Below are positions 4,518 through 13,456 of a stretch of 13,456 nt of DNA, piece by piece. Each line of letters starts with the position of its first letter. Position 1 is the stretch's first letter. The notes beneath the pieces were generated by a model, which was given only the letters and a program-made list of their open reading frames with translations, ran no database searches and had not been told where the DNA came from. This stretch comes from a virus (lineage: Duplodnaviria; Heunggongvirae; Uroviricota; Caudoviricetes). The translations under genes and the position numbers were made by a program. The stretch is from positions 1 to 13,456 of IMG/VR virus record IMGVR_UViG_2548876862_000021; one strand, 5' to 3'.

Positions 4518-4796
4518 TCAGGCCTCGAAGAATTCGCCGTTCTTCGGGGCTTTTTCTTTTGTCAGCATTCTGGCTACTTTCTTAGCCAGTTCCGCCAACT
4601 CCTCGTCTTCAACACCCCATTCAAGAACAGCCAGAAGCATTCCCATTTTGGGGATGAAGCTATCTTTCCATCGCGAAATTTGCGATTCATTAATCCCTAA
4701 CGCGTCGGCAACCTTTCGCTGACCACGTACAGCAATTCGATTCAGGATGTTGCTTGTAATTGCATTCGCTTTCTTGCGAGTACTTGTAAGTTGCAT
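4518..4796 (-). CDS. cII: cII-like transcriptional activator
   Basis: Track ORF 4518..4883 contains MQLTSTRKKANAITSNILNRIAVRGQRKVADALGINESQISRWKDSFIPKMGMLLAVLEWGVEDEE..., aligning with lambda CII (QISRWK...MLLAVLEWGV). Start set at ATG 4796-4794 so that nutR lies outside the gene. Confidence 0.8.
   Translation of the reverse strand: MQLTSTRKKANAITSNILNRIAVRGQRKVADALGINESQISRWKDSFIPKMGMLLAVLEWGVEDEELAELAKKVARMLTKEKAPKNGEFFEA
4522..4560 (+). terminator. Intrinsic terminator on the strand antisense to the cII 3' end (oop-like)
   Basis: 11-bp stem (GCCTCGAAGAA / TTCTTCGGGGC, one G-U) with 7-nt loop, directly followed by TTTTTCTTTT. Candidate extended -10 (TGtCATAAT, 4478-4486) about 40 nt upstream. 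Confidence 0.5.
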
Positions 4797-4854
4797 ATGT
4801 AAGTATTTCCTTAACAAATAAGAAGTTATGCGCATCAAATTATGCGCGTTGTAT

Positions 4855-4898
4855 TCCCGCATTTCGGCGGGAATGATGACCATGACTGTTAAAGAGCG
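4855..4898 (-). promoter_or_regulatory. nutR-like site: boxA (CGCTCTTTAACA) followed by boxB hairpin
   Basis: Read on minus strand: boxA at 4898-4887, 14-nt spacer, boxB TCCCGC-CGAAAT-GCGGGA at 4872-4855; the boxB 18-mer is identical to the one upstream of N. Confidence 0.6.
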
Positions 4899-4904
4899 GT
4901 GTTA

Positions 4905-5101
4905 CTATTTGTTTTTCTTGTTGCTTGGGAAAGGACGAACTTCCTCTCCAATCACACTGCCATCAGGCTTTACCGTAACCATGATGTTACGGCCTGCCAG
5001 AATGGCCTTGCTGATAGCGCACTGGATTACACCAAAGTCACTGGCTGCTTTAGCCTGTCCATGGATTTTGGCGTAATCGGCAAGTGTCATTCGAATCATA
5101 T
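4905..5101 (-). CDS. cro: Cro-like repressor
   Basis: [62 protein letters not shown] aligns with lambda Cro ([22 protein letters not shown]...PFPSNKK). Track start is GTG 5105; I prefer ATG 5101-5099 with GGAGAG upstream. Confidence 0.8.
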
Positions 5102-5128
5102 GCACTCTCCGTTATTAACCATGAACAA

Positions 5129-5205: not shown

Positions 5206-5922
5206 ATGGAAAATAAAAAATCACTGACGACAGAACAGCTCGAAGACGCTAAGCGGCTTAAGGCTTTGTATGAGTCAAAAAAGAAAGAATTGGGAATAAC
5301 CCAATACTCAATCGCTGATGAACTGGGTATCACCCAAGGAGCGGTAGGGCATTATCTTAATGGCAGAAACGCGCTAAACGTTGAGGTCGCATCTGGTTTT
5401 GCACGTTTGTTGCAAGTCTCAATTGCTGATTTTAGCCAGTCAATTGCTGCCAAGGTTGCAGAACAGGCAGAAAGCCTTAAGAGCGATGCCAACGTAAGGT
5501 ATGCAGGGGAATACAGAGCAGGAAAGAGGTATCCGGTGTTAAGCAGTATCCAGGCTGGCTCGTGGTGTGAAGCATGCGAACCATACACCATTAAAGACAT
5601 AGATGTTTGGCTTGAGTCTGACGCGCATATTCAAGGTAATGCGTTCTGGCTTAAAGTGGAAGGTGATTCAATGACGGCACCGGTTGGGTTAAGCATTCCA
5701 GAGGGAACATTCGTTCTTTTCGATACCGGAAGGGAGGCGATCAACGGCAGCTTGGTCATAGCAAAACTTTCTGACTCTAACGAAGCAACATTCAAGAAGC
5801 TGATAATCGACGGCGGAAATAAATACCTCAAGGGACTTAATCCTGCATGGCCTCTCGTGCCAATCAATGGAAACTGCAAGATTATAGGCGTTGCAATTGA
5901 GACAAAACTAAGGCTGGTTTGA
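5206..5922 (+). CDS. cI: CI-type prophage repressor (HTH N-terminal domain plus S24 LexA-like autocleavage domain)
   Basis: 238 aa, collinear with lambda CI ([24 protein letters not shown] / FWLEVEGNSMTAP / FKKLIRD all matched by close variants). No Shine-Dalgarno upstream of the ATG. Confidence 0.9.
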   Translation: MENKKSLTTEQLEDAKRLKALYESKKKELGITQYSIADELGITQGAVGHYLNGRNALNVEVASGFARLLQVSIADFSQSIAAKVAEQAESLKSDANVRYAGEYRAGKRYPVLSSIQAGSWCEACEPYTIKDIDVWLESDAHIQGNAFWLKVEGDSMTAPVGLSIPEGTFVLFDTGREAINGSLVIAKLSDSNEATFKKLIIDGGNKYLKGLNPAWPLVPINGNCKIIGVAIETKLRLV

Positions 5923-5939: not shown

Positions 5940-6308
5940 ATGGTTGGAACCGCTATAGCAAGCTTTTTTGGGATGTTGGCAATCTCGACAATTTACGGCT
6001 TAGCGCATGCTTTTATTGCGAAATCTCTATCAGAAAAAATAAGCCAGGCTTGGGCGCATAGATCAGCTCGTTTCATGATTCTGGTGATCATAGCAATACA
6101 AGGGATATCTGCATTTATCCTCTATGGATCAAGCTTATACCTATTGTATCAAGGCGCGACATTTACGCCTTACACCAGTGATTACGGAACTCTATACGAT
6201 GGTAGTGAAGACATCACTGTGGCTTGGATCGTCTTTGGTTTATCTATGGCCGTGTCTGTTGTAGCAGACATCATTAAGGTAATTCTCGTCTTAACCTTCG
6301 CTGACTAA
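5940..6308 (+). CDS. Small multi-pass membrane protein co-transcribed with cI (rexAB/sieB-position; candidate exclusion or abortive-infection factor)
   Basis: Track ORF 5919..6308 begins at a TTG overlapping the cI stop; ATG at 5940 has AAGGGG about 6 nt upstream. Several long hydrophobic segments consistent with transmembrane helices (AIASFFGMLAISTIYGLAHAFIA, FMILVIIAIQGISAFILYG, VAWIVFGLSMAVSVVADIIKVILVL). Confidence 0.6.
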   Translation: MVGTAIASFFGMLAISTIYGLAHAFIAKSLSEKISQAWAHRSARFMILVIIAIQGISAFILYGSSLYLLYQGATFTPYTSDYGTLYDGSEDITVAWIVFGLSMAVSVVADIIKVILVLTFAD

Positions 6309-6438
6309 CCTATAATCCCGGCAGCAATAGCTATCGGGATCCACTTCACATATCCCGCATAAAAAGCACTGAACAAGCAGACACCGAAAAAATAAATATC
6401 CTTTGTATTCATTTGCTTATCATTATTTCACCAAAAAT

Positions 6439-6480
6439 AAATACCTTGGGTATTTACACAATAAAATACCTACAGTATTC
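6439..6480 (+). promoter_or_regulatory. OL region: two operators of the same AATACC-N3-GGTATT family, with PL
   Basis: 6439-6453 AATACCTTGGGTATT (perfect), 6464-6478 AATACCTACAGTATT (1 mismatch), centres 25 bp apart. Candidate PL -35 TTTACA 6452-6457, 17-bp spacer, -10 TATTCT 6475-6480, the same -10 hexamer as PR. Confidence 0.6.
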
Positions 6481-6526
6481 TTTAGCCATCAGCAGGACGC
6501 TGGAAGCCAAACGGAACAGATTGGCA

Positions 6527-6568
6527 GGCTCTTTAACATTGATGGGATTGTCCCGCCGAAATGCGGGA
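6527..6568 (+). promoter_or_regulatory. nutL-like site: boxA (GGCTCTTTAACA) followed by boxB hairpin
   Basis: boxA 6527-6538 resembles the rrn/lambda boxA consensus; boxB TCCCGC-CGAAAT-GCGGGA at 6551-6568, identical to the nutR boxB; located between PL and N. Confidence 0.6.
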
Positions 6569-6675
6569 ACCAAAGAGTAGTTGGCTTTGGGGTGACGTGA
6601 AGTGCAGCTGCACGACGGCAACCGGAAGATAAGCACCCGGCGCGTCACCGCCAAAGTCAATCATCGGAGGTCAAC

Positions 6676-6975
6676 ATGACAGTAGTCATTACATATCTGG
6701 CTGACGATAACGCCAGAAATCGCCGCAGAGCACGCAGACAGGCTCAACGTGAGCAGGCAATGCAAGAGCAGCGACTGGCGCGAAAAATTGCGCTAAAGCT
6801 CTCTGGTTGCGTCAGAGCAGATAAAGCAGCATCACTCGGAAGCCTTCGCTGCAAGAAGGCAGAAGAAGTCGAGAGTAAACAGAATCGCATTTACTACCGC
6901 AAGCCACGCAGTGAAATGGGTGTGACTTGTGTTGGTCGCCAGAAAATGAAATTAAGCAGCAAACCACTTATTTGA
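6676..6975 (+). CDS. N: N-like transcription antiterminator
   Basis: 99 aa; N-terminal arginine-rich motif (NARNRRRARRQAQREQA); C-terminus RIYYRKPRSEMGVTCVGRQKMKLSSKPLI parallels lambda N (RTWYSKPGERGITCSGRQKIKGKSIPLI); GGAGG 6 nt upstream; directly downstream of nutL. Confidence 0.75.
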   Translation: MTVVITYLADDNARNRRRARRQAQREQAMQEQRLARKIALKLSGCVRADKAASLGSLRCKKAEEVESKQNRIYYRKPRSEMGVTCVGRQKMKLSSKPLI

Positions 6976-6983
6976 GGTGAGAT

Positions 6984-7070
6984 ATGGAAGAAGAATTTGA
7001 AGAGTTCGAAGAGCATCCGCAGGATGTGATGGAACAGTACCAGGACTATCCGTATGACTACGACTATTGA
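6984..7070 (+). CDS. Hypothetical 28-aa highly acidic, aromatic-rich peptide
   Basis: Hand-found: MEEEFEEFEEHPQDVMEQYQDYPYDYDY, preceded by GAGGTGAG. Very short, so coding status is uncertain. Confidence 0.3.
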   Translation: MEEEFEEFEEHPQDVMEQYQDYPYDYDY

Positions 7071-7254
7071 TAAAAATCAATGGTGTGGACAATTCAAGCG
7101 ATGCAATGGATGCAAGCTGCAATCGGAATGCATGGTTAAGCCTGAAGAAATGTTTCCTGTAATGGAAGATAGGAAATATGTCGATAAATGGGCAATACGA
7201 ACGACGGCAATGATTGCCAGAGAACTTGGTGAACTGAACAACAAGGCTGCCTGA
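7054..7254 (+). CDS. Hypothetical small Cys-containing protein (66 aa)
   Basis: Track ORF with C-x5-C-x2-C-x5-C spacing; weak ribosome-binding site; followed by a hairpin plus T-run. Confidence 0.35.
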   Translation: MTTTIDKNQWCGQFKRCNGCKLQSECMVKPEEMFPVMEDRKYVDKWAIRTTAMIARELGELNNKAA

Positions 7255-7290
7255 TGGTGGCCTTTATTTTCTTATTTGAGAGGAATTAAT

Positions 7291-7914
7291 ATGTCATCAA
7301 TCCGCTTAACTACGAGAATGAAAGAGGAAATCGCTCGTAACGCTTTAATTAAGTCTGGGGTTTTCACTGAGCTTGAAGAAGTAACAAAGTTAAAGAACCA
7401 GCTTGCACTTGACGCCAGAGTTATTGCGTTTGGCGGTAAAAAGAAAACTGAGGAAGTGGATCAGTTATCATCCAAGTTGGTAGCTATAAGTGAAGAACTT
7501 GAAAAGATGGGATGTTCATTTTACTCATACGATTTTCGTTCTACTTCAATTTATCTGACTGTATCTGGCAGAAGGGTTGGATGGCATTCATATGGGAAAG
7601 ACGGCAACGGCGAAGATATATTTCCCCCTACTCCAACCAAAGATAAATGCATGTTTGACGCAGAACACGAAATAACAAAAAGGTTTGATGAAATCTGCGC
7701 ATTGCAACAAAAACTTGAAGCCAAGAAAAAGGATATCGAATCAAATGTATGGGCTGCTTTGAACTCAGTCACAACAGTTAAGCGACTTATTGAGGTTTGG
7801 CCTGAAAGCAAAGAATTGCTACCAAAAGAAGCAGATAAAGCAAGTACAGCACTTCCTGCTTTACGGGTAGAAGATTTGAATAAGATGACTGGACTTCCTT
7901 CCGAGGCTGCATAG
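7291..7914 (+). CDS. Hypothetical protein (207 aa), first gene of low-GC cassette
   Basis: Track ORF 7276..7914; start set at ATG 7291 preceded by GAGAGGAA. GC about 38-40% in hand-counted 60-nt samples versus about 48-50% in flanking genes. No recognisable motif. Confidence 0.6.
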   Translation: MSSIRLTTRMKEEIARNALIKSGVFTELEEVTKLKNQLALDARVIAFGGKKKTEEVDQLSSKLVAISEELEKMGCSFYSYDFRSTSIYLTVSGRRVGWHSYGKDGNGEDIFPPTPTKDKCMFDAEHEITKRFDEICALQQKLEAKKKDIESNVWAALNSVTTVKRLIEVWPESKELLPKEADKASTALPALRVEDLNKMTGLPSEAA

Positions 7915-7977
7915 TCGGCCTTTATTTTTAGCATAAACAACAGAATAAACACTGCACTGAATTATTTGAGGTTAGAT

Positions 7978-8448
7978 ATGACAAAATCATGGAGCGTACC
8001 TTTTCCTGAATCAGAAACTGAACATGAGGGAATGCCTGTTTTCTGGAGATTCCAGGCGACAGTTGAAGAAGATGGAATCAAAATATTCGCACTTCAATAT
8101 ATAGCTTTTCATCAGACAGAGCATTATGCATGGTTGGTTCCTGCGCATTGGATTGTTAATTTTAAACCAGCACCAAATCAGTGGTTACAGGAATGGAAAC
8201 AAAAGAGAAATAGATATGCAATTAAGAAAGTAGCAAAAAATGCAGAAAGATCTTTTGCATTCCCAACGAAGAAACTTGCCATTGAGAGTTTATTGCGCCG
8301 GAAGAAATACCATTTAATGAGAATCAAACAAGATTTGGCTGTTGTATCAACTCTTGTTGATGGGATGAAGAATATTGATACATCAACACCAGATATTGAA
8401 TATAACTTTGGGCACAACCAAGAAACAGAAAATTGGGTATTTTATTAG
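7978..8448 (+). CDS. Hypothetical protein (156 aa), second gene of low-GC cassette
   Basis: Track ORF 7966..8448; start set at ATG 7978 preceded by GAGGT. Low GC; no recognisable motif. Confidence 0.6.
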   Translation: MTKSWSVPFPESETEHEGMPVFWRFQATVEEDGIKIFALQYIAFHQTEHYAWLVPAHWIVNFKPAPNQWLQEWKQKRNRYAIKKVAKNAERSFAFPTKKLAIESLLRRKKYHLMRIKQDLAVVSTLVDGMKNIDTSTPDIEYNFGHNQETENWVFY

Positions 8449-8552
8449 TACGAGTAAGCACTATGTATTCATTCCAACGAGTGAATACACGGAGCAATGT
8501 CGCTCGTAACTAAACAGGAGCCGACTTGTTCTGATTATTGGAAATCTTCTTT

Positions 8553-8578
8553 GCCCTCCAGTGTGAGGGCTTTTTTAT
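8553..8578 (+). terminator. Intrinsic terminator downstream of the low-GC cassette
   Basis: GCCCTC-CAGTGT-GAGGGC stem-loop immediately followed by TTTTTTAT. Confidence 0.6.
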
Positions 8579-8642
8579 ATGCATACCAATAACGCTTCAC
8601 TTGAGGCGTTTTCGTTATGCAATCAAATATAAGGAGTTACCC

Positions 8643-8777
8643 ATGATGCACTTTCAGCTCGCGGGTAGCGGCGTCATGTCCGCTTTCTACCCGCACGAAT
8701 CTGAATTATCACGCCGAGTTAAACAATTAATCAGAGCAGCAAAGAAACAACTGGAGGCGTTATGCGCAATGAGATAG
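8643..8777 (+). CDS. cIII: cIII-like small protein (44 aa; FtsH-inhibitor family)
   Basis: MMHFQLAGSGVMSAFYPHESELSRRVKQLIRAAKKQLEALCAMR resembles the lambda CIII core (AIAGWPVAGCPSESLLERITRKLR); AAGGAG upstream. The 79-aa track ORF 8538..8777 is an upstream TTG extension of it. Confidence 0.55.
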   Translation: MMHFQLAGSGVMSAFYPHESELSRRVKQLIRAAKKQLEALCAMR

Positions 8778-8914
8778 CCATCAATCACCAGATGCTTCGT
8801 GCTGCACAGAACAAAGCAGTAATAGCTAGATTTATTGGTGATTCCAAAATGTGGCTTGAAGCAAATAAAGCGATGAAATCAGCTATCAACCTTCCGTGGT
8901 ATCGCAGGAAATGA
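8762..8914 (+). CDS. Kil-like small protein (50 aa), overlapping the cIII-like 3' end
   Basis: Hand-found: MRNEIAINHQMLRAAQNKAVIARFIGDSKMWLEANKAMKSAINLPWYRRK. GGAGG upstream; overlap with cIII mirrors the lambda cIII/kil arrangement. Similarity to lambda Kil is from uncertain recall of an ATFIGDEKMF-type motif. Confidence 0.4.
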   Translation: MRNEIAINHQMLRAAQNKAVIARFIGDSKMWLEANKAMKSAINLPWYRRK

Positions 8915-8989
8915 GTTTTACAGATAACTGGTCAGACGAAGAATTCATTCGTCAGATGAAAGAATTAATCGGTAACGAAGGAGATATTC

Positions 8990-9160
8990 ATGTCACTTGC
9001 AACCACAGTGAAGGAGAGCAAGTTACAGAGACGCATGTACACGCAGAAAGCTCTCTGGTATCGCCATAATGGTGACCGCGAAGGAATGCGGGTATGCCTT
9101 AATTTGTCCCGAGTCGAAGTATTAAATCAGCGTTATTTCCTTGGGCCGTGTCCATTCTGA
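8990..9160 (+). CDS. Hypothetical small protein (56 aa)
   Basis: Hand-found: MSLATTVKESKLQRRMYTQKALWYRHNGDREGMRVCLNLSRVEVLNQRYFLGPCPF. AAGGAG upstream; ends 8 nt before the SSAP gene. Confidence 0.35.
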   Translation: MSLATTVKESKLQRRMYTQKALWYRHNGDREGMRVCLNLSRVEVLNQRYFLGPCPF

Positions 9161-9168
9161 GGTGAATT

Positions 9169-9876
9169 ATGGATTTGAATAAATTCGATGAGCCATTCAG
9201 CCCTGAAGATATCGAATGGCGAATACAGCAAAGCGGTAAAACACGCGATGGCAAAGTGTGGGCTATGGTGCTGGCTTATGTCACGAACCGGGCAATCATG
9301 AAACGCCTGGACGATGTTTGTGGCAAAGCAGGATGGCGCAATGAATACCGCGATATTCCCAACAACGGCGGCGTTGAATGCGGCATATCAATAAAGATTG
9401 ATTCCGAATGGGTAACCAAATGGGATGCTGCTGAAAACACGCAGGTAGAAGCCGTCAAAGGTGGTCGTTCAGGTGCAATGAAGCGCGCTGCCGTTCAGTG
9501 GGGAATCGGTCGGTATCTGTATAACCTTGAGGAAGGTTTCGCACAAACATCTCTCGACAAAAAGCAGGGATGGCACAGGGCAAAACTCAAGGATGGAACA
9601 GGATTTTACTGGCTCCCTCCATCGCTGCCAGGCTGGGCAATCCCAGCATCAGATAACAAACCATCACCAGAAAATACCAACCAGAAATCTCCATCGGTTG
9701 ACTGCGAGCAAATCCTGAAAGACTTCAGCGATTATGCGTCAACAGAAACTGACAAGAAAAAACTCATCGAGCGTTATCAGCGTGACTGGCAATTAATGGC
9801 TGGCAACGAGGAAGCGCAGGCTAAATGCGTTCAGGTAATGAACATCAGAGTTAACGAACTAAAACAGGCGGCATAA
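9169..9876 (+). CDS. Single-strand annealing protein, Rad52/Sak-like
   Basis: 235 aa; region KGGRSGAMKRAAVQWGIGRYLY fits the Rad52-family pattern; stop abuts the SSB start (TAAATG); GAGGTG upstream. Confidence 0.6.
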   Translation: MDLNKFDEPFSPEDIEWRIQQSGKTRDGKVWAMVLAYVTNRAIMKRLDDVCGKAGWRNEYRDIPNNGGVECGISIKIDSEWVTKWDAAENTQVEAVKGGRSGAMKRAAVQWGIGRYLYNLEEGFAQTSLDKKQGWHRAKLKDGTGFYWLPPSLPGWAIPASDNKPSPENTNQKSPSVDCEQILKDFSDYASTETDKKKLIERYQRDWQLMAGNEEAQAKCVQVMNIRVNELKQAA

Positions 9877-10383
9877 ATGGCAAGCAGAGGCGTAAATAAG
9901 GTGATTATCCTTGGTCGGGTAGGACAAGACCCGGAAGTTCGATACTCACCATCAGGAACAGCGTTCGCTAACCTGACAATAGCCACGTCAGAACAATGGC
10001 GAGATAAAAATACTGGCGAGCAAAAGGAATTGACTGAATGGCATCGTGTTGCTGTATCCGGGAAACTGGCTGAGGTCGTGGGGCAGTATGTGAAAAAAGG
10101 TGATCAGATTTATTTCGAGGGAATGCTGAGAACCAGAAAGTGGAAAGACCAGTCAGGACAAGACCGTTACACAACCGAGGTTCATGTCGGAATTAATGGC
10201 GTGATGCAAATGCTTGGCGGCATTGGCGACAGCAAACAACAAGCAGCCAGCAGGCAATCACAGAAGCCACAGCAGCAATCATCACCAGCACAACACAACG
10301 AACCACCTATGGATTTTGACGACGATATACCCTTTGCACCAGTAACTCTCCCCTTCCCTCGTCACGCTATTCACGCAATTTAA
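9877..10383 (+). CDS. ssb: Single-stranded DNA-binding protein (SSB) with a 15-aa extension beyond the canonical DDDIPF tip
   Basis: N-terminus [23 protein letters not shown]..., [14 protein letters not shown] and [11 protein letters not shown] all match E. coli SSB; the ORF continues [15 protein letters not shown] before the stop. Confidence 0.9.
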
Positions 10384-10396
10384 TCAGGAGAAAATC

Positions 10397-10690
10397 ATGC
10401 CAGCGCCTCTGTATTGTGCGGATGACGCGCGCCGCTGTTCCGGCAATTCCGTATCGGAGGTGCTGGATAAATTCAGAAAAAACTACGATCGAATAATGTC
10501 TCTACCGCAGGAAACGAAAGAGGAAAAGGAATTTCGCCACTGCGTATGGCTTGCAGAGAAAGAAGAACGCGAGCGAATTTACCAGACATCAATCCGACCA
10601 TTCCGCAAAGCCACATATACCCACTTCCCTGAAATTGACCCGCGCCTGCGTAATTACCGCTCACGCTATGGCGCTATCAGTAATGACTGA
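10397..10690 (+). CDS. Hypothetical protein (97 aa)
   Basis: Track ORF; AGGAG 6 nt upstream of the ATG. Confidence 0.55.
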
Positions 10691-12161: not shown

Positions 12162-12848
12162 ATGACCACTATTACCAAAGAACGTATTGAATTGTTCATT
12201 AAAAATCCGCTTGAAAACGGGCTTACCCGTGGTGAACAAATGGAACTGGCACGGATTGCGCTGGCATCGCTGGAAGCAGATCCAGTTGCTTATATTTTCA
12301 AACATCCGGCCGGGAAATTATTCTGGTCTTTAACGGATGAAAGCAATAAAGAGCAAGCGGACGTTATTCCTGTTTATGCTGCCGCGCCTGCGTCGGTTGT
12401 GCCGGATAATGCATCAGAGCCTCTTGCTTATGCTTACAAAGAGCTTACGCCTGAGATTATGCGCAACCATTTAGCTGTATTCGAGCGATATGGAATAGCC
12501 CCAAACGATAGCTCTACCACAATTCAGGCACTGCGAATCGCGCTGGATGGCATAGAGCGGAGAGACGCCATGCTTCATGGTGCCGAACCTGTAAGCCAAA
12601 CTTACAAGTTGAACCAGCTATCGGGCAACTATCCGGTAACTCCGGATGGTTGGATAAGATGTAGTGATCGAATGCCGGAAGACACCAAAATGTTACTGGC
12701 ATTTAGTCAAGGTGAAATCGTGGCCGCATATTGGAACTGGGTTGTAAATCCAATTGATTACAAAAAATATAGAGCTTTCACGTATTTATCAGGAAATATC
12801 TTGGATGACGTAACTCACTGGATGCCGCTACCAGAGCCTCCACTTTGA
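12162..12848 (+). CDS. Hypothetical protein (228 aa), C-terminal DUF551-like region
   Basis: Track ORF; TAAGGAG upstream; C-terminal ...VTHWMPLPEPPL resembles the DUF551 signature as I recall it. Confidence 0.55.
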   Translation: MTTITKERIELFIKNPLENGLTRGEQMELARIALASLEADPVAYIFKHPAGKLFWSLTDESNKEQADVIPVYAAAPASVVPDNASEPLAYAYKELTPEIMRNHLAVFERYGIAPNDSSTTIQALRIALDGIERRDAMLHGAEPVSQTYKLNQLSGNYPVTPDGWIRCSDRMPEDTKMLLAFSQGEIVAAYWNWVVNPIDYKKYRAFTYLSGNILDDVTHWMPLPEPPL

Positions 12849-12944
12849 AAGCGAAGCTTATACATATCTTTTACATCAGCAATCTATTGTTAATCTCCAA
12901 TCAATGTTACGTTGTCATCTCACTCATGCTTTGGAGGTAGTGAT

Positions 12945-13124
12945 ATGTCTTGTCCAAAATGCGGTTCTGGAAATATTGCAAAAGAAAAAACAATGCGTGG
13001 ATGGTCTGATGATTATGTGTGCTGCGATTGCGGATACAACGACTCTAAAGACGCATTTGGAGAGCGTGGTAAAAACGATTTTGTCAAAATTAATAAAGGA
13101 CGCGAAGGCAACGAAAAAAGCTAA
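12945..13124 (+). CDS. Small zinc-ribbon protein (59 aa)
   Basis: MSCPKCGSGN...CCDCGYN (CxxC...CxxC); GGAGG upstream of ATG 12945. The track ORF 12912..13124 uses an upstream TTG. Confidence 0.5.
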   Translation: MSCPKCGSGNIAKEKTMRGWSDDYVCCDCGYNDSKDAFGERGKNDFVKINKGREGNEKS

Positions 13125-13187
13125 TTTATTTATTCATATATGAAAACAATGTAACCAATATTCGAATTGAAGAACTGAAAGAACACC

Positions 13188-13212
13188 AAGCCGCCTGATG
13201 GCGGTTTTTTAT
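13188..13212 (+). terminator. Intrinsic terminator ending the leftward-operon accessory block
   Basis: CCGCC-TGAT-GGCGG stem-loop followed by TTTTTTATT. Confidence 0.6.
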
Positions 13213-13255
13213 TACCTGATTTGCAGGTTCGATTCCCTATTCGGAGATAGCACTC

Positions 13256-13456
13256 ATGCAACACGAACTACAGCCTGATTCCCTGGTTGATTTGAAATTC
13301 ATCATGGCCGATACTGGCTTCGGTAAAACCTTCATCTATGACCGGATTAAGTTCGGAGACCTGCCTAAAGCCAAAGTTATCCACGGGCGAGCAAGATGGT
13401 TATATCGTGACCATTGTGAATTCAAAAATAAGCTCTTAAGCCGCGCCAATGGGTAA
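13256..13456 (+). CDS. Excisionase / AlpA-family DNA-binding protein (probable Xis)
   Basis: 66 aa; ...MADTGFGKTFIYDRIKFGDLPKAKVIHGRARWLY... fits the AlpA/excisionase pattern; GGAGAT upstream; stop at the last base of the window. Confidence 0.5.
   Translation: MQHELQPDSLVDLKFIMADTGFGKTFIYDRIKFGDLPKAKVIHGRARWLYRDHCEFKNKLLSRANG

Follow-up and report, generated by a model that had tools for sequence, protein, structure and literature searches.

The low-GC stretch downstream of ral in a lambdoid phage comprises two separately shuffled, already catalogued genes beside a known lambda small RNA

In the early-left (PL) operon of the phage DNA analysed here (13,456 nucleotides, hereafter the window), two adjacent low-GC genes, designated A and B in this study, lie between N and cIII. 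A first-pass annotation had put them forward as the best candidate for a new two-gene anti-defence or defence cassette closed by its own terminator, and the question raised by this locus is whether A and B form such a unit. The low GC content, the two ORFs, the ribosome-binding sites and the hairpin of that reading were all recovered, whereas the pair, the ownership of the terminator and the novelty were not. The low-GC stretch consists of two separately shuffled phage genes, already catalogued and with no function assigned, beside a known lambda small RNA. The main value of the analysis lies in this correction, by which the new pair with its own terminator becomes two orphan genes, both catalogued, beside an sRNA already published.

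Composition and insertion map of the low-GC stretch

The two ORFs have the lengths first reported (Table 1), and their ATG starts match the N-termini of the homologues. A GAGG motif is located 7–8 nt upstream of both ATGs, in agreement with the ribosome-binding sites that had been noted. The GC contents of A and B were 40.2% and 36.3% (GC3, 33.7% and 29.3%), compared with 45.8% for the window. Taken together, A and B had a GC content of 38.2% against 46.5% in the remaining window, and they form essentially the lowest-GC stretch of their length in it (lowest value, 0.380 at a start of 7252; mean, 0.459; sd, 0.030). The reported contrast was thus confirmed by computation for the genes themselves, but the flanks ranged from 43 to 50% and did not show the uniform 48–50% that had been stated. 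ral (41.8%) is part of the same low-GC zone. orf28, which is preceded by a TTATTTGAGG linker, belongs to the backbone and lies outside the low-GC insertions.

Table 1. Features of the region from orf28 to cIII (coordinates refer to the window)
Feature	Position	Strand	Evidence and remarks
orf28	6984–7070	+	28-aa highly acidic peptide ORF, net charge approximately −12; overlaps the ral start as in lambda orf28-ral
ral, restriction-alleviation gene	7054–7254	+	Pfam Ral, E 4.5e-46, full length; phrog_1055
Terminator-like hairpin over the ral stop codon, then TATTTT	7243–7270 (hairpin 7243–7264)	+	Scan; homologous to the lambda ral 3' end, 29/31 identity
Insertion 1 relative to lambda, 658 nt	7271–7928	+	Aligned to the lambda ral-ea10 spacer
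Gene A	7291–7914	+	207 aa, Nmad5 family
Terminator-like hairpin over the A stop codon, with the second GGCCTTTATTTT copy	7903–7928 (hairpin 7903–7922)	+	Scan, alignment
Lambda-type spacer segment (AGCATAAACAACAGAATAAACACTGCACTG)	7929–7959	+	Alignment; ends in GCACTG (7954–7959), the first 6-nt repeat copy
Insertion 2 relative to lambda, 504 nt	7960–8463	+	Alignment; TTATTTGAGG linker with RBS plus gene B
Gene B	7978–8448	+	156-aa basic protein, HK97 gp45 / 933W ST933Wp19 / H-19B family (phrog_1636)
PreS/LPR1 homologue	8489–8576	+	Bounds approximate, from the published length of approximately 88 nt
Second terminator-like hairpin, cIII leader	8591–8610	+	Scan; common to HK97 and mEp235, absent from lambda (ea10 follows instead)
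cIII, downstream backbone gene	8643–8777	+	Pfam cIII, E 2e-30

Alignments to lambda, HK97, mEp235 and phi367 show a lambda-like backbone (N, orf28, ral, spacer, PreS with tL2a, cIII and kil), and two single-gene modules have each entered the ral-PreS spacer by an insertion of their own. The placement of the genes between N and cIII, in a PL accessory slot, is correct, but their position is more exactly between ral and PreS/tL2a. Insertion 1 consists of gene A, preceded by a TTATTTGAG linker with a ribosome-binding site and closed by a second ral-type hairpin. Its flanks are formed by 12-nt direct repeats, the first of which, GGCCTTTATTTT at 7259–7270, lies within the ral 3' hairpin segment, and the second at 7917–7928. 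All of the 80 IMG/VR copies of A end in the ral-type hairpin, and all 80 are preceded by TTATTTGAG. The AGCATAAACAACAGAATAAACACTGCACTG spacer segment runs straight into the PreS region in lambda and mEp235; here it is followed by insertion 2, which is flanked by GCACTG and GCACTA (8458–8463) and is also present at the same site in phi367, which lacks A. The TTATTTGAG(G/A) translation-initiation linker starts both modules, and it also stands upstream of orf28 here and, in other phages, of A or B. Such short common junctions are the likely crossover points for module swapping. Three terminator-like hairpins had been overlooked previously: those over the stop codons of ral and A, and the one before cIII.

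Morons and the exchange of mosaic modules at conserved gene-boundary sequences are an established concept from the comparative genomics of HK97, HK022 and lambda. A and B resemble such modules in being low-GC single-gene units with short junctions and 3' hairpins that are present or absent between near-identical backbones. Each has a distinct composition, contains one gene and is followed by a hairpin, namely the hairpin at its own 3' end for A and tL2a for B. Classic morons, however, carry their own promoter and are expressed in the prophage, whereas no promoter was detected for A and B. With its short repeats, common TTATTTGAG linker and duplicated ral-type hairpin, the insertion map provides a clean example of single-gene slotting into the PL operon.

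The tL2a terminator, the PreS homologue and expression from PL

A hairpin followed by a T-run is indeed present where the terminator had been placed (8553–8578), at 8553–8576. It is lambda tL2a and forms the 3' end of a PreS/LPR1 homologue. In lambda, LPR1 sits between ral and ea10 and ends at tL2a, and PreS is an Hfq-dependent, Hfq-bound RNA of approximately 68–88 nt that is present in lytic growth, is undetected in lysogens and takes part in dnaN regulation (bioRxiv 10.1101/2024.10.31.621285). The homologue is composed of a 5' stem-loop, a U/A-rich single strand, the tL2a hairpin (8553–8570; a 6-bp stem with five G-C pairs) and the T-run (8571–8576), and thus has the same architecture as lambda PreS/tL2a and the same place downstream of ral in the PL operon. 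Positions 8458–8570 were identical to the lambda ral-ea10 spacer at 112 of 113 nucleotides, up to the end of the terminator stem. The predicted fold had an MFE of −29.8 kcal/mol (z, −3.8), and 0 of 200 shuffled sequences folded as well. An Rfam search of 6300–9200 gave no real match; PreS has no Rfam family. In contrast to lambda, there is a 2-nt deletion between the stem and the T-run, and tL2a is followed by the second hairpin and cIII instead of ea10. In addition, the two inserted genes part PreS from ral, so that it is predicted to be the 3' UTR of B and not of ral; the B 3' UTR would then serve as the PreS precursor.

PreS was located downstream of B in 73 of 75 loci and downstream of A in 70 of 75 loci, at fixed spacings. 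Lambda, with neither gene, HK97, with B alone, and mEp235, with A alone, all have a nearly identical copy of the tL2a hairpin segment. Because it is conserved in phages lacking one or both genes, the terminator belongs to the backbone and not to A or B.

A consensus scan, which weak or non-sigma-70 promoters could escape, detected no sigma-70-like site with at least 9/12 matches in 6481–8917. At the lower threshold of at least 8/12 matches, the scan gave no promoter-like site upstream of A and only weak internal sites approximately 350 nt upstream of B. Since no promoter was detectable and both genes follow terminator-like hairpins on the PL strand, transcription from PL during lytic growth is probably their only source of expression. 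Their synthesis would begin only upon infection or induction, on PL transcripts antiterminated by N, which also carry ral, PreS, cIII, kil, erf and abc2.

Occurrence of A and B in other phages and in E. coli genomes

By sequence comparison, both genes are already known: B corresponds to HK97 gp45 and 933W ST933Wp19, and A to mEp235 gp37, named "Nmad5 family" in RefSeq. B showed 98.1% identity to HK97 gp45 and 98.7% identity to ST933Wp19, the gene adjoining N in 933W, over the full length of the protein, and these genes have the same TTATTTGAGG start linker. They also have the same downstream neighbour as B, the PreS/tL2a hairpin, after which cIII follows in HK97. However, B directly follows N in HK97 and 933W, both without A, whereas it follows ral and A in the present phage. 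Near-identical copies of A are carried by mEp235, HK542, Kapi1 and Stx phages, and RefSeq proteins with 94–96% identity to A bear the Nmad5 family name.

In a set of 5,426 complete E. coli genomes, 211 carried A, 598 carried B and 48 the A-B junction. The observed adjacency (48–49) was no higher than the approximately 59 cases expected from random assortment over 3,236 related places, an approximate figure because any place with a match, even a partial one, to the 1,725-nt query was counted as a slot. Approximately 77% of the A-bearing genomes had no adjoining B, and approximately 92% of the B-bearing genomes had no A. In IMG/VR, 5 of the 80 loci with B and 7 of the 80 with A had the two genes paired. 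Single carriage was also seen in model phages and in other genera: phi367 has ral and then B, without A; mEp235, HK542 and Kapi1 have A without B; the Klebsiella homologues of A (57% identity) form the first gene after the repressor, without B; and a Pectobacterium homologue of B adjoins xis-int, without A. Phages with A only, B only, both and neither all occur. Because adjacency is near chance and model phages carry one gene without the other, A and B assort independently and not as a pair. Their co-occurrence was at or below chance.

Protein families and candidate functions of A and B

The first-pass annotation had assigned no motif to either protein, but A is a full-length member of the Nmad5 family (Pfam PF18757), matching profile positions 1–206 of 206 with residues 4–203 (score, 236.3 bits; curated gathering cutoff, 27; E 4.6e-70). 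Nmad5 stands for "nucleotide modification associated domain 5"; the name is based on gene neighbourhood alone. The structure model of A combines a helical hairpin with a small beta hairpin, a long helix and a C-terminal block that is conserved (TxK[KR]LIxxWPE ... LPALxVxDLNxxIGLP), and its best Foldseek matches in BFVD were Nmad5 proteins (E down to 5.8e-13; TM, 0.75), so that A is predicted to have the same fold as other phage members. No relative of the model was found among solved structures, including solved anti-defence proteins, and a PADLOC search with A gave no matches. In lytic phages, Nmad5 genes adjoin DNA polymerase, thymidylate synthase or helicase-primase genes; the homologue in Pseudomonas phage M6 lies inside a thymidine-hypermodification and thymidylate-synthase cluster, and that in N4-like SP-076 adjoins ThyX. 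A, on the other hand, stands alone in a temperate-phage PL operon without nearby modification enzymes. No demonstrated biochemical activity was found for any Nmad5 member in the literature searched.

The sole experimental lead is from a Dhillonvirus, in which a point mutation in Nmad5 permits escape from the Tmn defence (PMC11846954). If the SMA8 protein is numbered like its 254-aa Oekolampad homologue, the escape position K216 aligns with K164/R165 of A, in the most conserved Nmad5 motif. The C-terminal motif block is kept in the Dhillonvirus and M6 homologues, including the K/R position at issue. The Dhillonvirus protein differs from A in being longer (254 aa) and encoded among structural genes, and the two are 33% identical only over the C-terminal 100 or so residues.

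B matched phrog_1636 over residues 1–156 of 156 (E 1.5e-111). The profile search that had been proposed thus placed both proteins in families, neither of which has a characterised function. A search of Pfam, NCBIfam and PADLOC with B gave no family, the PADLOC output being a sub-threshold chance match (E 0.0096). When 1.84 billion representatives were searched with the HMM profile of B, the family grew to approximately 85 small phage-type proteins with no consistent Pfam domain; Pfam matches on two long proteins were discarded as isolated, unrelated repeats. B has a pI of 9.05 and a net charge of +13 in residues 61–120. Its structure model is unreliable (pLDDT 59), and on that model no structural relative was found among solved anti-defence proteins. 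Sequence searches of solved structures with the A and B family profiles gave nothing below E 0.6. An AP2-like DNA-binding fold, considered from a beta-beta-beta-helix pattern in B, was supported by no search, and an equivalence of B to P22 gene 17 or sieB was discarded, as tblastn found B in one Salmonella phage only and not in P22. Literature searches with HK97 gp45, accession numbers and locus tags yielded nothing on A or B; ral is mentioned both in the accessory-gene screen of the Silas lab and in the EHEC phage paper, but neither A nor B is.

That A and B work together as a two-component anti-defence or defence system is very unlikely. The genes are adjacent, co-oriented and low in GC, they lie beside ral where anti-restriction and exclusion genes are known to occur, and their arrangement recurs in the 48 E. 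coli genomes noted above. However, this reading is largely refuted by the distribution of the genes, and the separate insertion boundaries, the hairpin between A and B and the lack of PADLOC matches also stand against it. We give little credence to the idea that A, B or both are expressed in the prophage to protect the lysogen through defence or superinfection exclusion, like the morons lambda sieB/rex and HK97 gp15. Such a role would suit low-GC, moron-like single-gene modules with 3' hairpins in a region where lambda has sieB. Against it, A and B are encoded on the PL strand with the cI-repressed PL and terminator-like hairpins upstream, the adjoining PreS is undetected in lambda lysogens, membrane segments and PADLOC matches are lacking in both proteins, and the homologues in N4-like, M6-like and Dhillonvirus lytic phages cannot serve lysogen defence. 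The probable lytic-only expression argues against prophage defence; with no promoter-like site upstream of either gene beyond the weak internal ones, and with a slot that is lytic-only in lambda, the defence half of the original proposal is disfavoured.

It is likewise quite improbable that A is part of a base-modification pathway altering phage DNA or nucleotides to evade restriction. The full-length Nmad5 match, the neighbourhoods in M6 and SP-076 and the place beside ral, which suits an anti-restriction theme, are in favour of this pathway. No kinase, transferase, hydroxymethylase, glycosylase or other base- or nucleotide-modification enzyme was found, however, across the 13.4-kb window or beside the Klebsiella homologues, the invariant residues of A are mostly structural with no evident catalytic or active-site motif, and its modelled helical-hairpin fold has no enzyme-like relative; the family name, too, comes from gene neighbourhood alone. 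Rather doubtful is the reading that A, B or both act singly as counter-defence or defence-sensed proteins, for instance A with KAP-NTPase systems of the Tmn type and B by inhibiting another host system. Both are early lytic genes of the anti-host cluster that includes ral, abc2, kil and cIII. Their distribution is patchy and varies between strains, as is typical of arms-race genes, and the Dhillonvirus escape mutations map to a motif kept in A. On the other hand, A is unlike solved anti-defence proteins, the comparison for B carries no information, having been made on an unreliable model, and the anti-Tmn activity of the Dhillonvirus belongs to another gene, and deletion of nmad5 left Tmn sensitivity in place (PMC11846954).

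We consider it likely that the region is a mosaic accessory slot of the lambdoid PL operon and not a two-gene system. Each protein may act alone as a non-essential early accessory factor, although this is put forward tentatively. From the lack of a catalytic signature, the lytic-phage neighbourhood and the Tmn-escape mutation in a conserved motif, A could, with similar reserve, be a binding or adaptor protein acting on DNA replication, nucleotide metabolism or a host sensor of these. The strongly basic central segment of B hints at a small nucleic-acid-binding or host-factor-binding protein. Both may have a role in host takeover or counter-defence. A more specific version, rather unlikely as a whole, is that A and B are each stand-alone early arms-race effectors, with A being recognised by, or blocking, Tmn-type (KAP NTPase) or similar immune sensors and B being a new inhibitor, small and basic, directed at a host factor that handles nucleic acids or serves defence. 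If this version holds, lambdoid and Shiga-toxin phages would have in the ral-PreS spacer a defined and recombination-ready "landing pad" for genes of counter-defence. B, which is carried by 933W, H-19B and many Stx1/Stx2 phages in addition to the E. coli genomes, and A both remain functionally blank, and the Dhillonvirus observation offers a concrete and cheap lead for A. Lambda with neither gene, mEp235 with A, HK97 with B and the present prophage with both constitute a natural isogenic comparison set.

Gene organization and base composition

Pfam and PHROG scans indicated that the window covers the immunity and early region of a prophage that is lambdoid but has recombination genes of the P22/HK97 type, and that its + strand runs in the PL direction. 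The two ORFs reported in the first-pass annotation as a low-GC cassette, gene A (207 aa) and gene B (156 aa), were both recovered; their ATG starts fitted the N-termini of their homologues, and a GAGG ribosome-binding site was found 7–8 nt upstream of each. Their low GC content was upheld by proper computation (38.2%, compared with 46.5% for the rest of the window). GC and GC3 were 40.2% and 33.7% for A, and 36.3% and 29.3% for B. The 1,158-nt stretch of minimum GC in the whole window begins at 7252 (0.380, compared with a mean of 0.459, sd 0.030), and ral also lies in the low-GC zone (41.8%). A second low-GC patch (0.38–0.39) encloses a Cys-rich 70-aa ORF, whose matches to the Lar restriction-alleviation protein (E 1.6e-4) and a small zinc-finger family were weak and below the cutoff.

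Features of the window and the evidence or description for each
Feature	Position	Strand	Evidence or description
NinX, NinB, DnaB-type helicase, O-like protein		-	Pfam/PHROG
cII	4518-4883	-	Pfam/PHROG
cro	4905-5105	-	Pfam/PHROG
cI	5206-5922	+	Pfam/PHROG
Membrane ORF, 129 aa	5919-6308	+	
N	6676-6975	+	Pfam/PHROG
Linker	6968-6976		before orf28
orf28-like peptide ORF, 28 aa	6984-7070	+	
ral	7054-7254	+	Pfam Ral, E 4.5e-46
Spacer piece 1	7240-7270		lambda ral 3' end and hairpin; 29/31 identical
Terminator-like hairpin	7243-7264	+	over ral stop codon
Direct repeat, copies 1 and 2	7259-7270, 7917-7928		12 nt
Insertion 1	7271-7928		contains A
Linker	7272-7280		before A
Gene A	7291-7914	+	Nmad5
Terminator-like hairpin	7903-7922	+	over A stop codon
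Spacer piece 2	7906-7959		second hairpin copy and lambda spacer up to TGCACTG
Flanks of insertion 2	7954-7959, 8458-8463		GCACTG, GCACTA
Insertion 2	7960-8463		contains B
Linker	7962-7970		before B
Gene B	7978-8448	+	phrog_1636
Spacer piece 3	8458-8570		remaining spacer through tL2a stem; 112/113 identical
Putative PreS homologue, about 88 nt	8489-8576	+	
Hairpin (tL2a)	8553-8576		GCCCTCCAGTGTGAGGGC then T6
Terminator-like hairpin	8591-8610	+	AACGCTTCACTTGAGGCGTT then TTCGTT; between tL2a and cIII start
cIII	8643-8777	+	Pfam/PHROG
kil	8762-8914	+	Pfam/PHROG
Erf/Rad52	9169-9876	+	Pfam/PHROG
SSB	9877-10383	+	Pfam/PHROG
Abc2	10397-10690	+	Pfam/PHROG
Ead/Ea22, then DUF551	3' of Abc2	+	Pfam/PHROG
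Second low-GC patch	12750-13350		
Cys-rich ORF, 70 aa	12912-13124	+	

Two insertions and the backbone PreS/tL2a element

When the 182-nt ral-ea10 spacer of lambda was aligned to the window, it was found to be split into three pieces. Compared with lambda, two separate insertions are therefore present in the window, the first bounded by the direct repeat GGCCTTTATTTT. A terminator scan upheld the hairpin regarded as the cassette's own terminator, and located three further + strand terminator-like sites that had been overlooked. The most downstream of these is common to HK97 and mEp235 and is missing from lambda, in which ea10 comes after tL2a.

In lambda, the Hfq-dependent sRNA LPR1, renamed PreS, lies between ral and ea10 and ends in the terminator tL2a; the RNA of about 88 nt is processed to about 68 nt, is detected only during lytic growth, and raises translation of the host dnaN (bioRxiv 10.1101/2024.10.31.621285). 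Judged by alignment, the window appears to encode a near-perfect homologue of PreS, predicted to fold into a 5' stem-loop and a terminator joined by a U-rich single strand (z = -3.8), for which Rfam has no model; relative to lambda, its tL2a has a 2-nt deletion ahead of the T-run. The region from 8465 to cIII is near-identical in HK97, where it follows B, and in mEp235, where it follows A. Therefore, the clean terminator belongs to the backbone and is not the cassette's own. The PreS core was present 3' of B in 73 of 75 informative IMG/VR loci (57 at the same 71-nt spacing) and 3' of A in 70 of 75 loci (52 at 101 nt). In the window the PreS homologue would make up the 3' UTR of B, and not of ral, and this UTR would be the PreS precursor.

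The linker TTATTTGAG(G/A) opens every module a few bases 5' of the ATG, and the form ahead of the 28-aa ORF, TTATTTGAGG, is the same as at A and B. Elsewhere it preceded all 80 copies of A and 75 of the 77 copies of B, as well as the counterparts of orf28, A and B in HK97, mEp235 and phi367 (loci L001, L002 and L170), and all 80 A copies ended in the GGCCTTTATTTT hairpin. The linker and these hairpins mark the boundaries where modules differ between phages, which suggests that such short shared junctions act as crossover points for module swapping. This is consistent with the established mosaicism of lambdoid phages, of which the architecture, consisting of moron-like units in which no promoter was detected, is a classic case.

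The 28-aa ORF is extremely acidic (MEEEFEEFEEHPQDVMEQYQDYPYDYDY; net charge about -12) and overlaps the ral start, as the annotated orf28 of lambda does. In mEp235 (L002, about 2925-2990), an approximately 65-nt remnant of the 3' end of a window-type N gene, matching window 6900-6965, is located downstream of the Nun gene and just 5' of the linker and the Nmad5 (A-family) gene; it appears to be the footprint of a past recombination that imported the module together with the N tail.

Genes A and B assort independently

A and B had been proposed to form a functional pair; however, phages carry either gene alone and their adjacency is not above chance. Phage phi367 has ral followed by B without A, mEp235, HK542 and Kapi1 have A and lack B, and B directly follows N in HK97 and 933W. 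Among 5,426 complete E. coli genomes, A occurred at 229 places (211 genomes), B at 833 places (598 genomes), and the A-B junction, covered to at least 80%, in 49 records (48 genomes). Given about 3,236 E. coli places matching some part of this slot, random assortment expects 229 x 833 / 3,236 = about 59 adjacencies, and 48–49 were observed. Among close relatives in IMG/VR, A was upstream in 5 of 80 B loci and B downstream in 7 of 80 A loci, and the ral-A-B order of the window was absent from all 5,426 E. coli genomes and all 160 IMG/VR loci. Klebsiella prophages have their A homologue directly after the repressor, ahead of kil and without B, and in Pectobacterium the B homologue adjoins xis-int without A. 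A and B are thus independent of each other, and we tentatively suggest that each acts alone.

Gene products and expression

A is a member of the Nmad5 family by sequence and fold. It matched Pfam PF18757 (Nmad5, 'nucleotide modification associated domain 5') over the full profile (positions 1-206 of 206; 236 bits, E 4.6e-70), and also phrog_1965. E. coli proteins 94–96% identical to A are named 'Nmad5 family putative nucleotide modification protein' in RefSeq, and homologues with 41–60% identity occur in Klebsiella, Enterobacter, Raoultella, Pantoea, Providencia and Serratia. In the confident AlphaFold model (pLDDT 86.9), residues 8-72 form an antiparallel helical hairpin, residues 86-100 a small beta hairpin and residues 127-158 a long helix, followed by short helices and by a poorly ordered linker (184-191) ahead of a conserved tail; a Foldseek search of viral models retrieved solely other Nmad5 proteins, from diverse phages. 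The invariant residues cluster in a C-terminal block (NSVTTxKRLIEVWPESKELxP ... LPALxVxDLNxxIGLP), and no catalytic-looking constellation was evident among them. The neighbourhood trait behind the Nmad5 name is absent from the A locus, and Pfam and PHROG scans detected no modification enzyme encoded within the window.

Relatives of A in lytic phages are located in replication or nucleotide-metabolism modules: between hypermodification genes and thymidylate synthase plus DNA polymerase in M6, after DNA polymerase and ThyX in the N4-like SP-076, and after helicase-primase in eiAU. In temperate phages they stand alone in early operons. In the sole experiment touching the family, a K-to-E change in the Nmad5 of a Dhillonvirus led to escape from Tmn defence; this nmad5 was toxic to clone, but its deletion gave no escape (PMC11846954). 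Presuming the numbering of a 254-aa homologue, the altered residue corresponds in the alignment to K164/R165 of A, within its most conserved motif. Based on the seemingly non-enzymatic character of A, the context of its relatives and the Tmn escape, we tentatively favour a binding or adaptor role for the protein, with DNA metabolism, or a sensor of it, as the target. The rightward early region of Nmad5-carrying Klebsiella prophages (metagenome contig L165, 1-1668) encodes HTH_ParB and, in one case, DndB-family proteins.

B had no family in Pfam, NCBIfam or PADLOC, and matched phrog_1636 end to end (E 1.5e-111). It is HK97 gp45: it is 98–99% identical to that protein, to the 933W gene adjoining N (ST933Wp19), and to ORFs of H-19B, BP-4795, Min27, Stx2 phage 86 and many Stx1a phages. 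Pectobacterium, Brenneria, Cronobacter and Rosenbergiella have homologues that are 55–85% identical. When 1.84 billion representatives were searched with a profile, the family widened to 85 small proteins, which belong to phrog_13631 and phrog_25384 and share no consistently present Pfam domain. Since both proteins are conserved at full length across genera, A and B are real genes. B is basic (pI 9.05; net charge +13 in residues 61-120), and may be a small nucleic-acid-binding or host-factor-binding protein. The region thus consists of catalogued genes and a published sRNA, contrary to the novelty first suggested; its modest remaining interest lies in the absence of an assigned function for A and B, the broad distribution among Stx phages and the lead from Tmn.

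A consensus scan detected no sigma-70-like site with at least 9 of 12 matches in 6481-8917, and lowering the threshold to 8 of 12 still gave none upstream of A; B had only weak sites, inside A, about 350 nt upstream. A and B lie on the PL strand and are each preceded by terminator-like hairpins, which N-modified polymerase would read through. Taken together with the downstream position of PreS, which is lytic-only in lambda, these features suggest that both proteins are probably produced in the delayed-early phase of lytic growth, alongside ral, cIII, kil, erf and abc2. Such expression disfavours lysogen defence by either gene, the defence side of the role first proposed for the pair.

The 129-aa ORF, which occupies the slot that rexAB has in lambda, is a stronger candidate than A or B for an exclusion or defence gene expressed in the lysogen. 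The beginning of this ORF overlaps the stop codon of cI, and in the lysogen the two genes are therefore probably transcribed together. The ORF has several hydrophobic membrane-like segments and matches phrog_6534 (unknown function); Pfam gave no confident match (sub-threshold TssN only, E 0.043), and PADLOC and NCBIfam searches gave none. The cI-orf129-N order was found again in other prophages.
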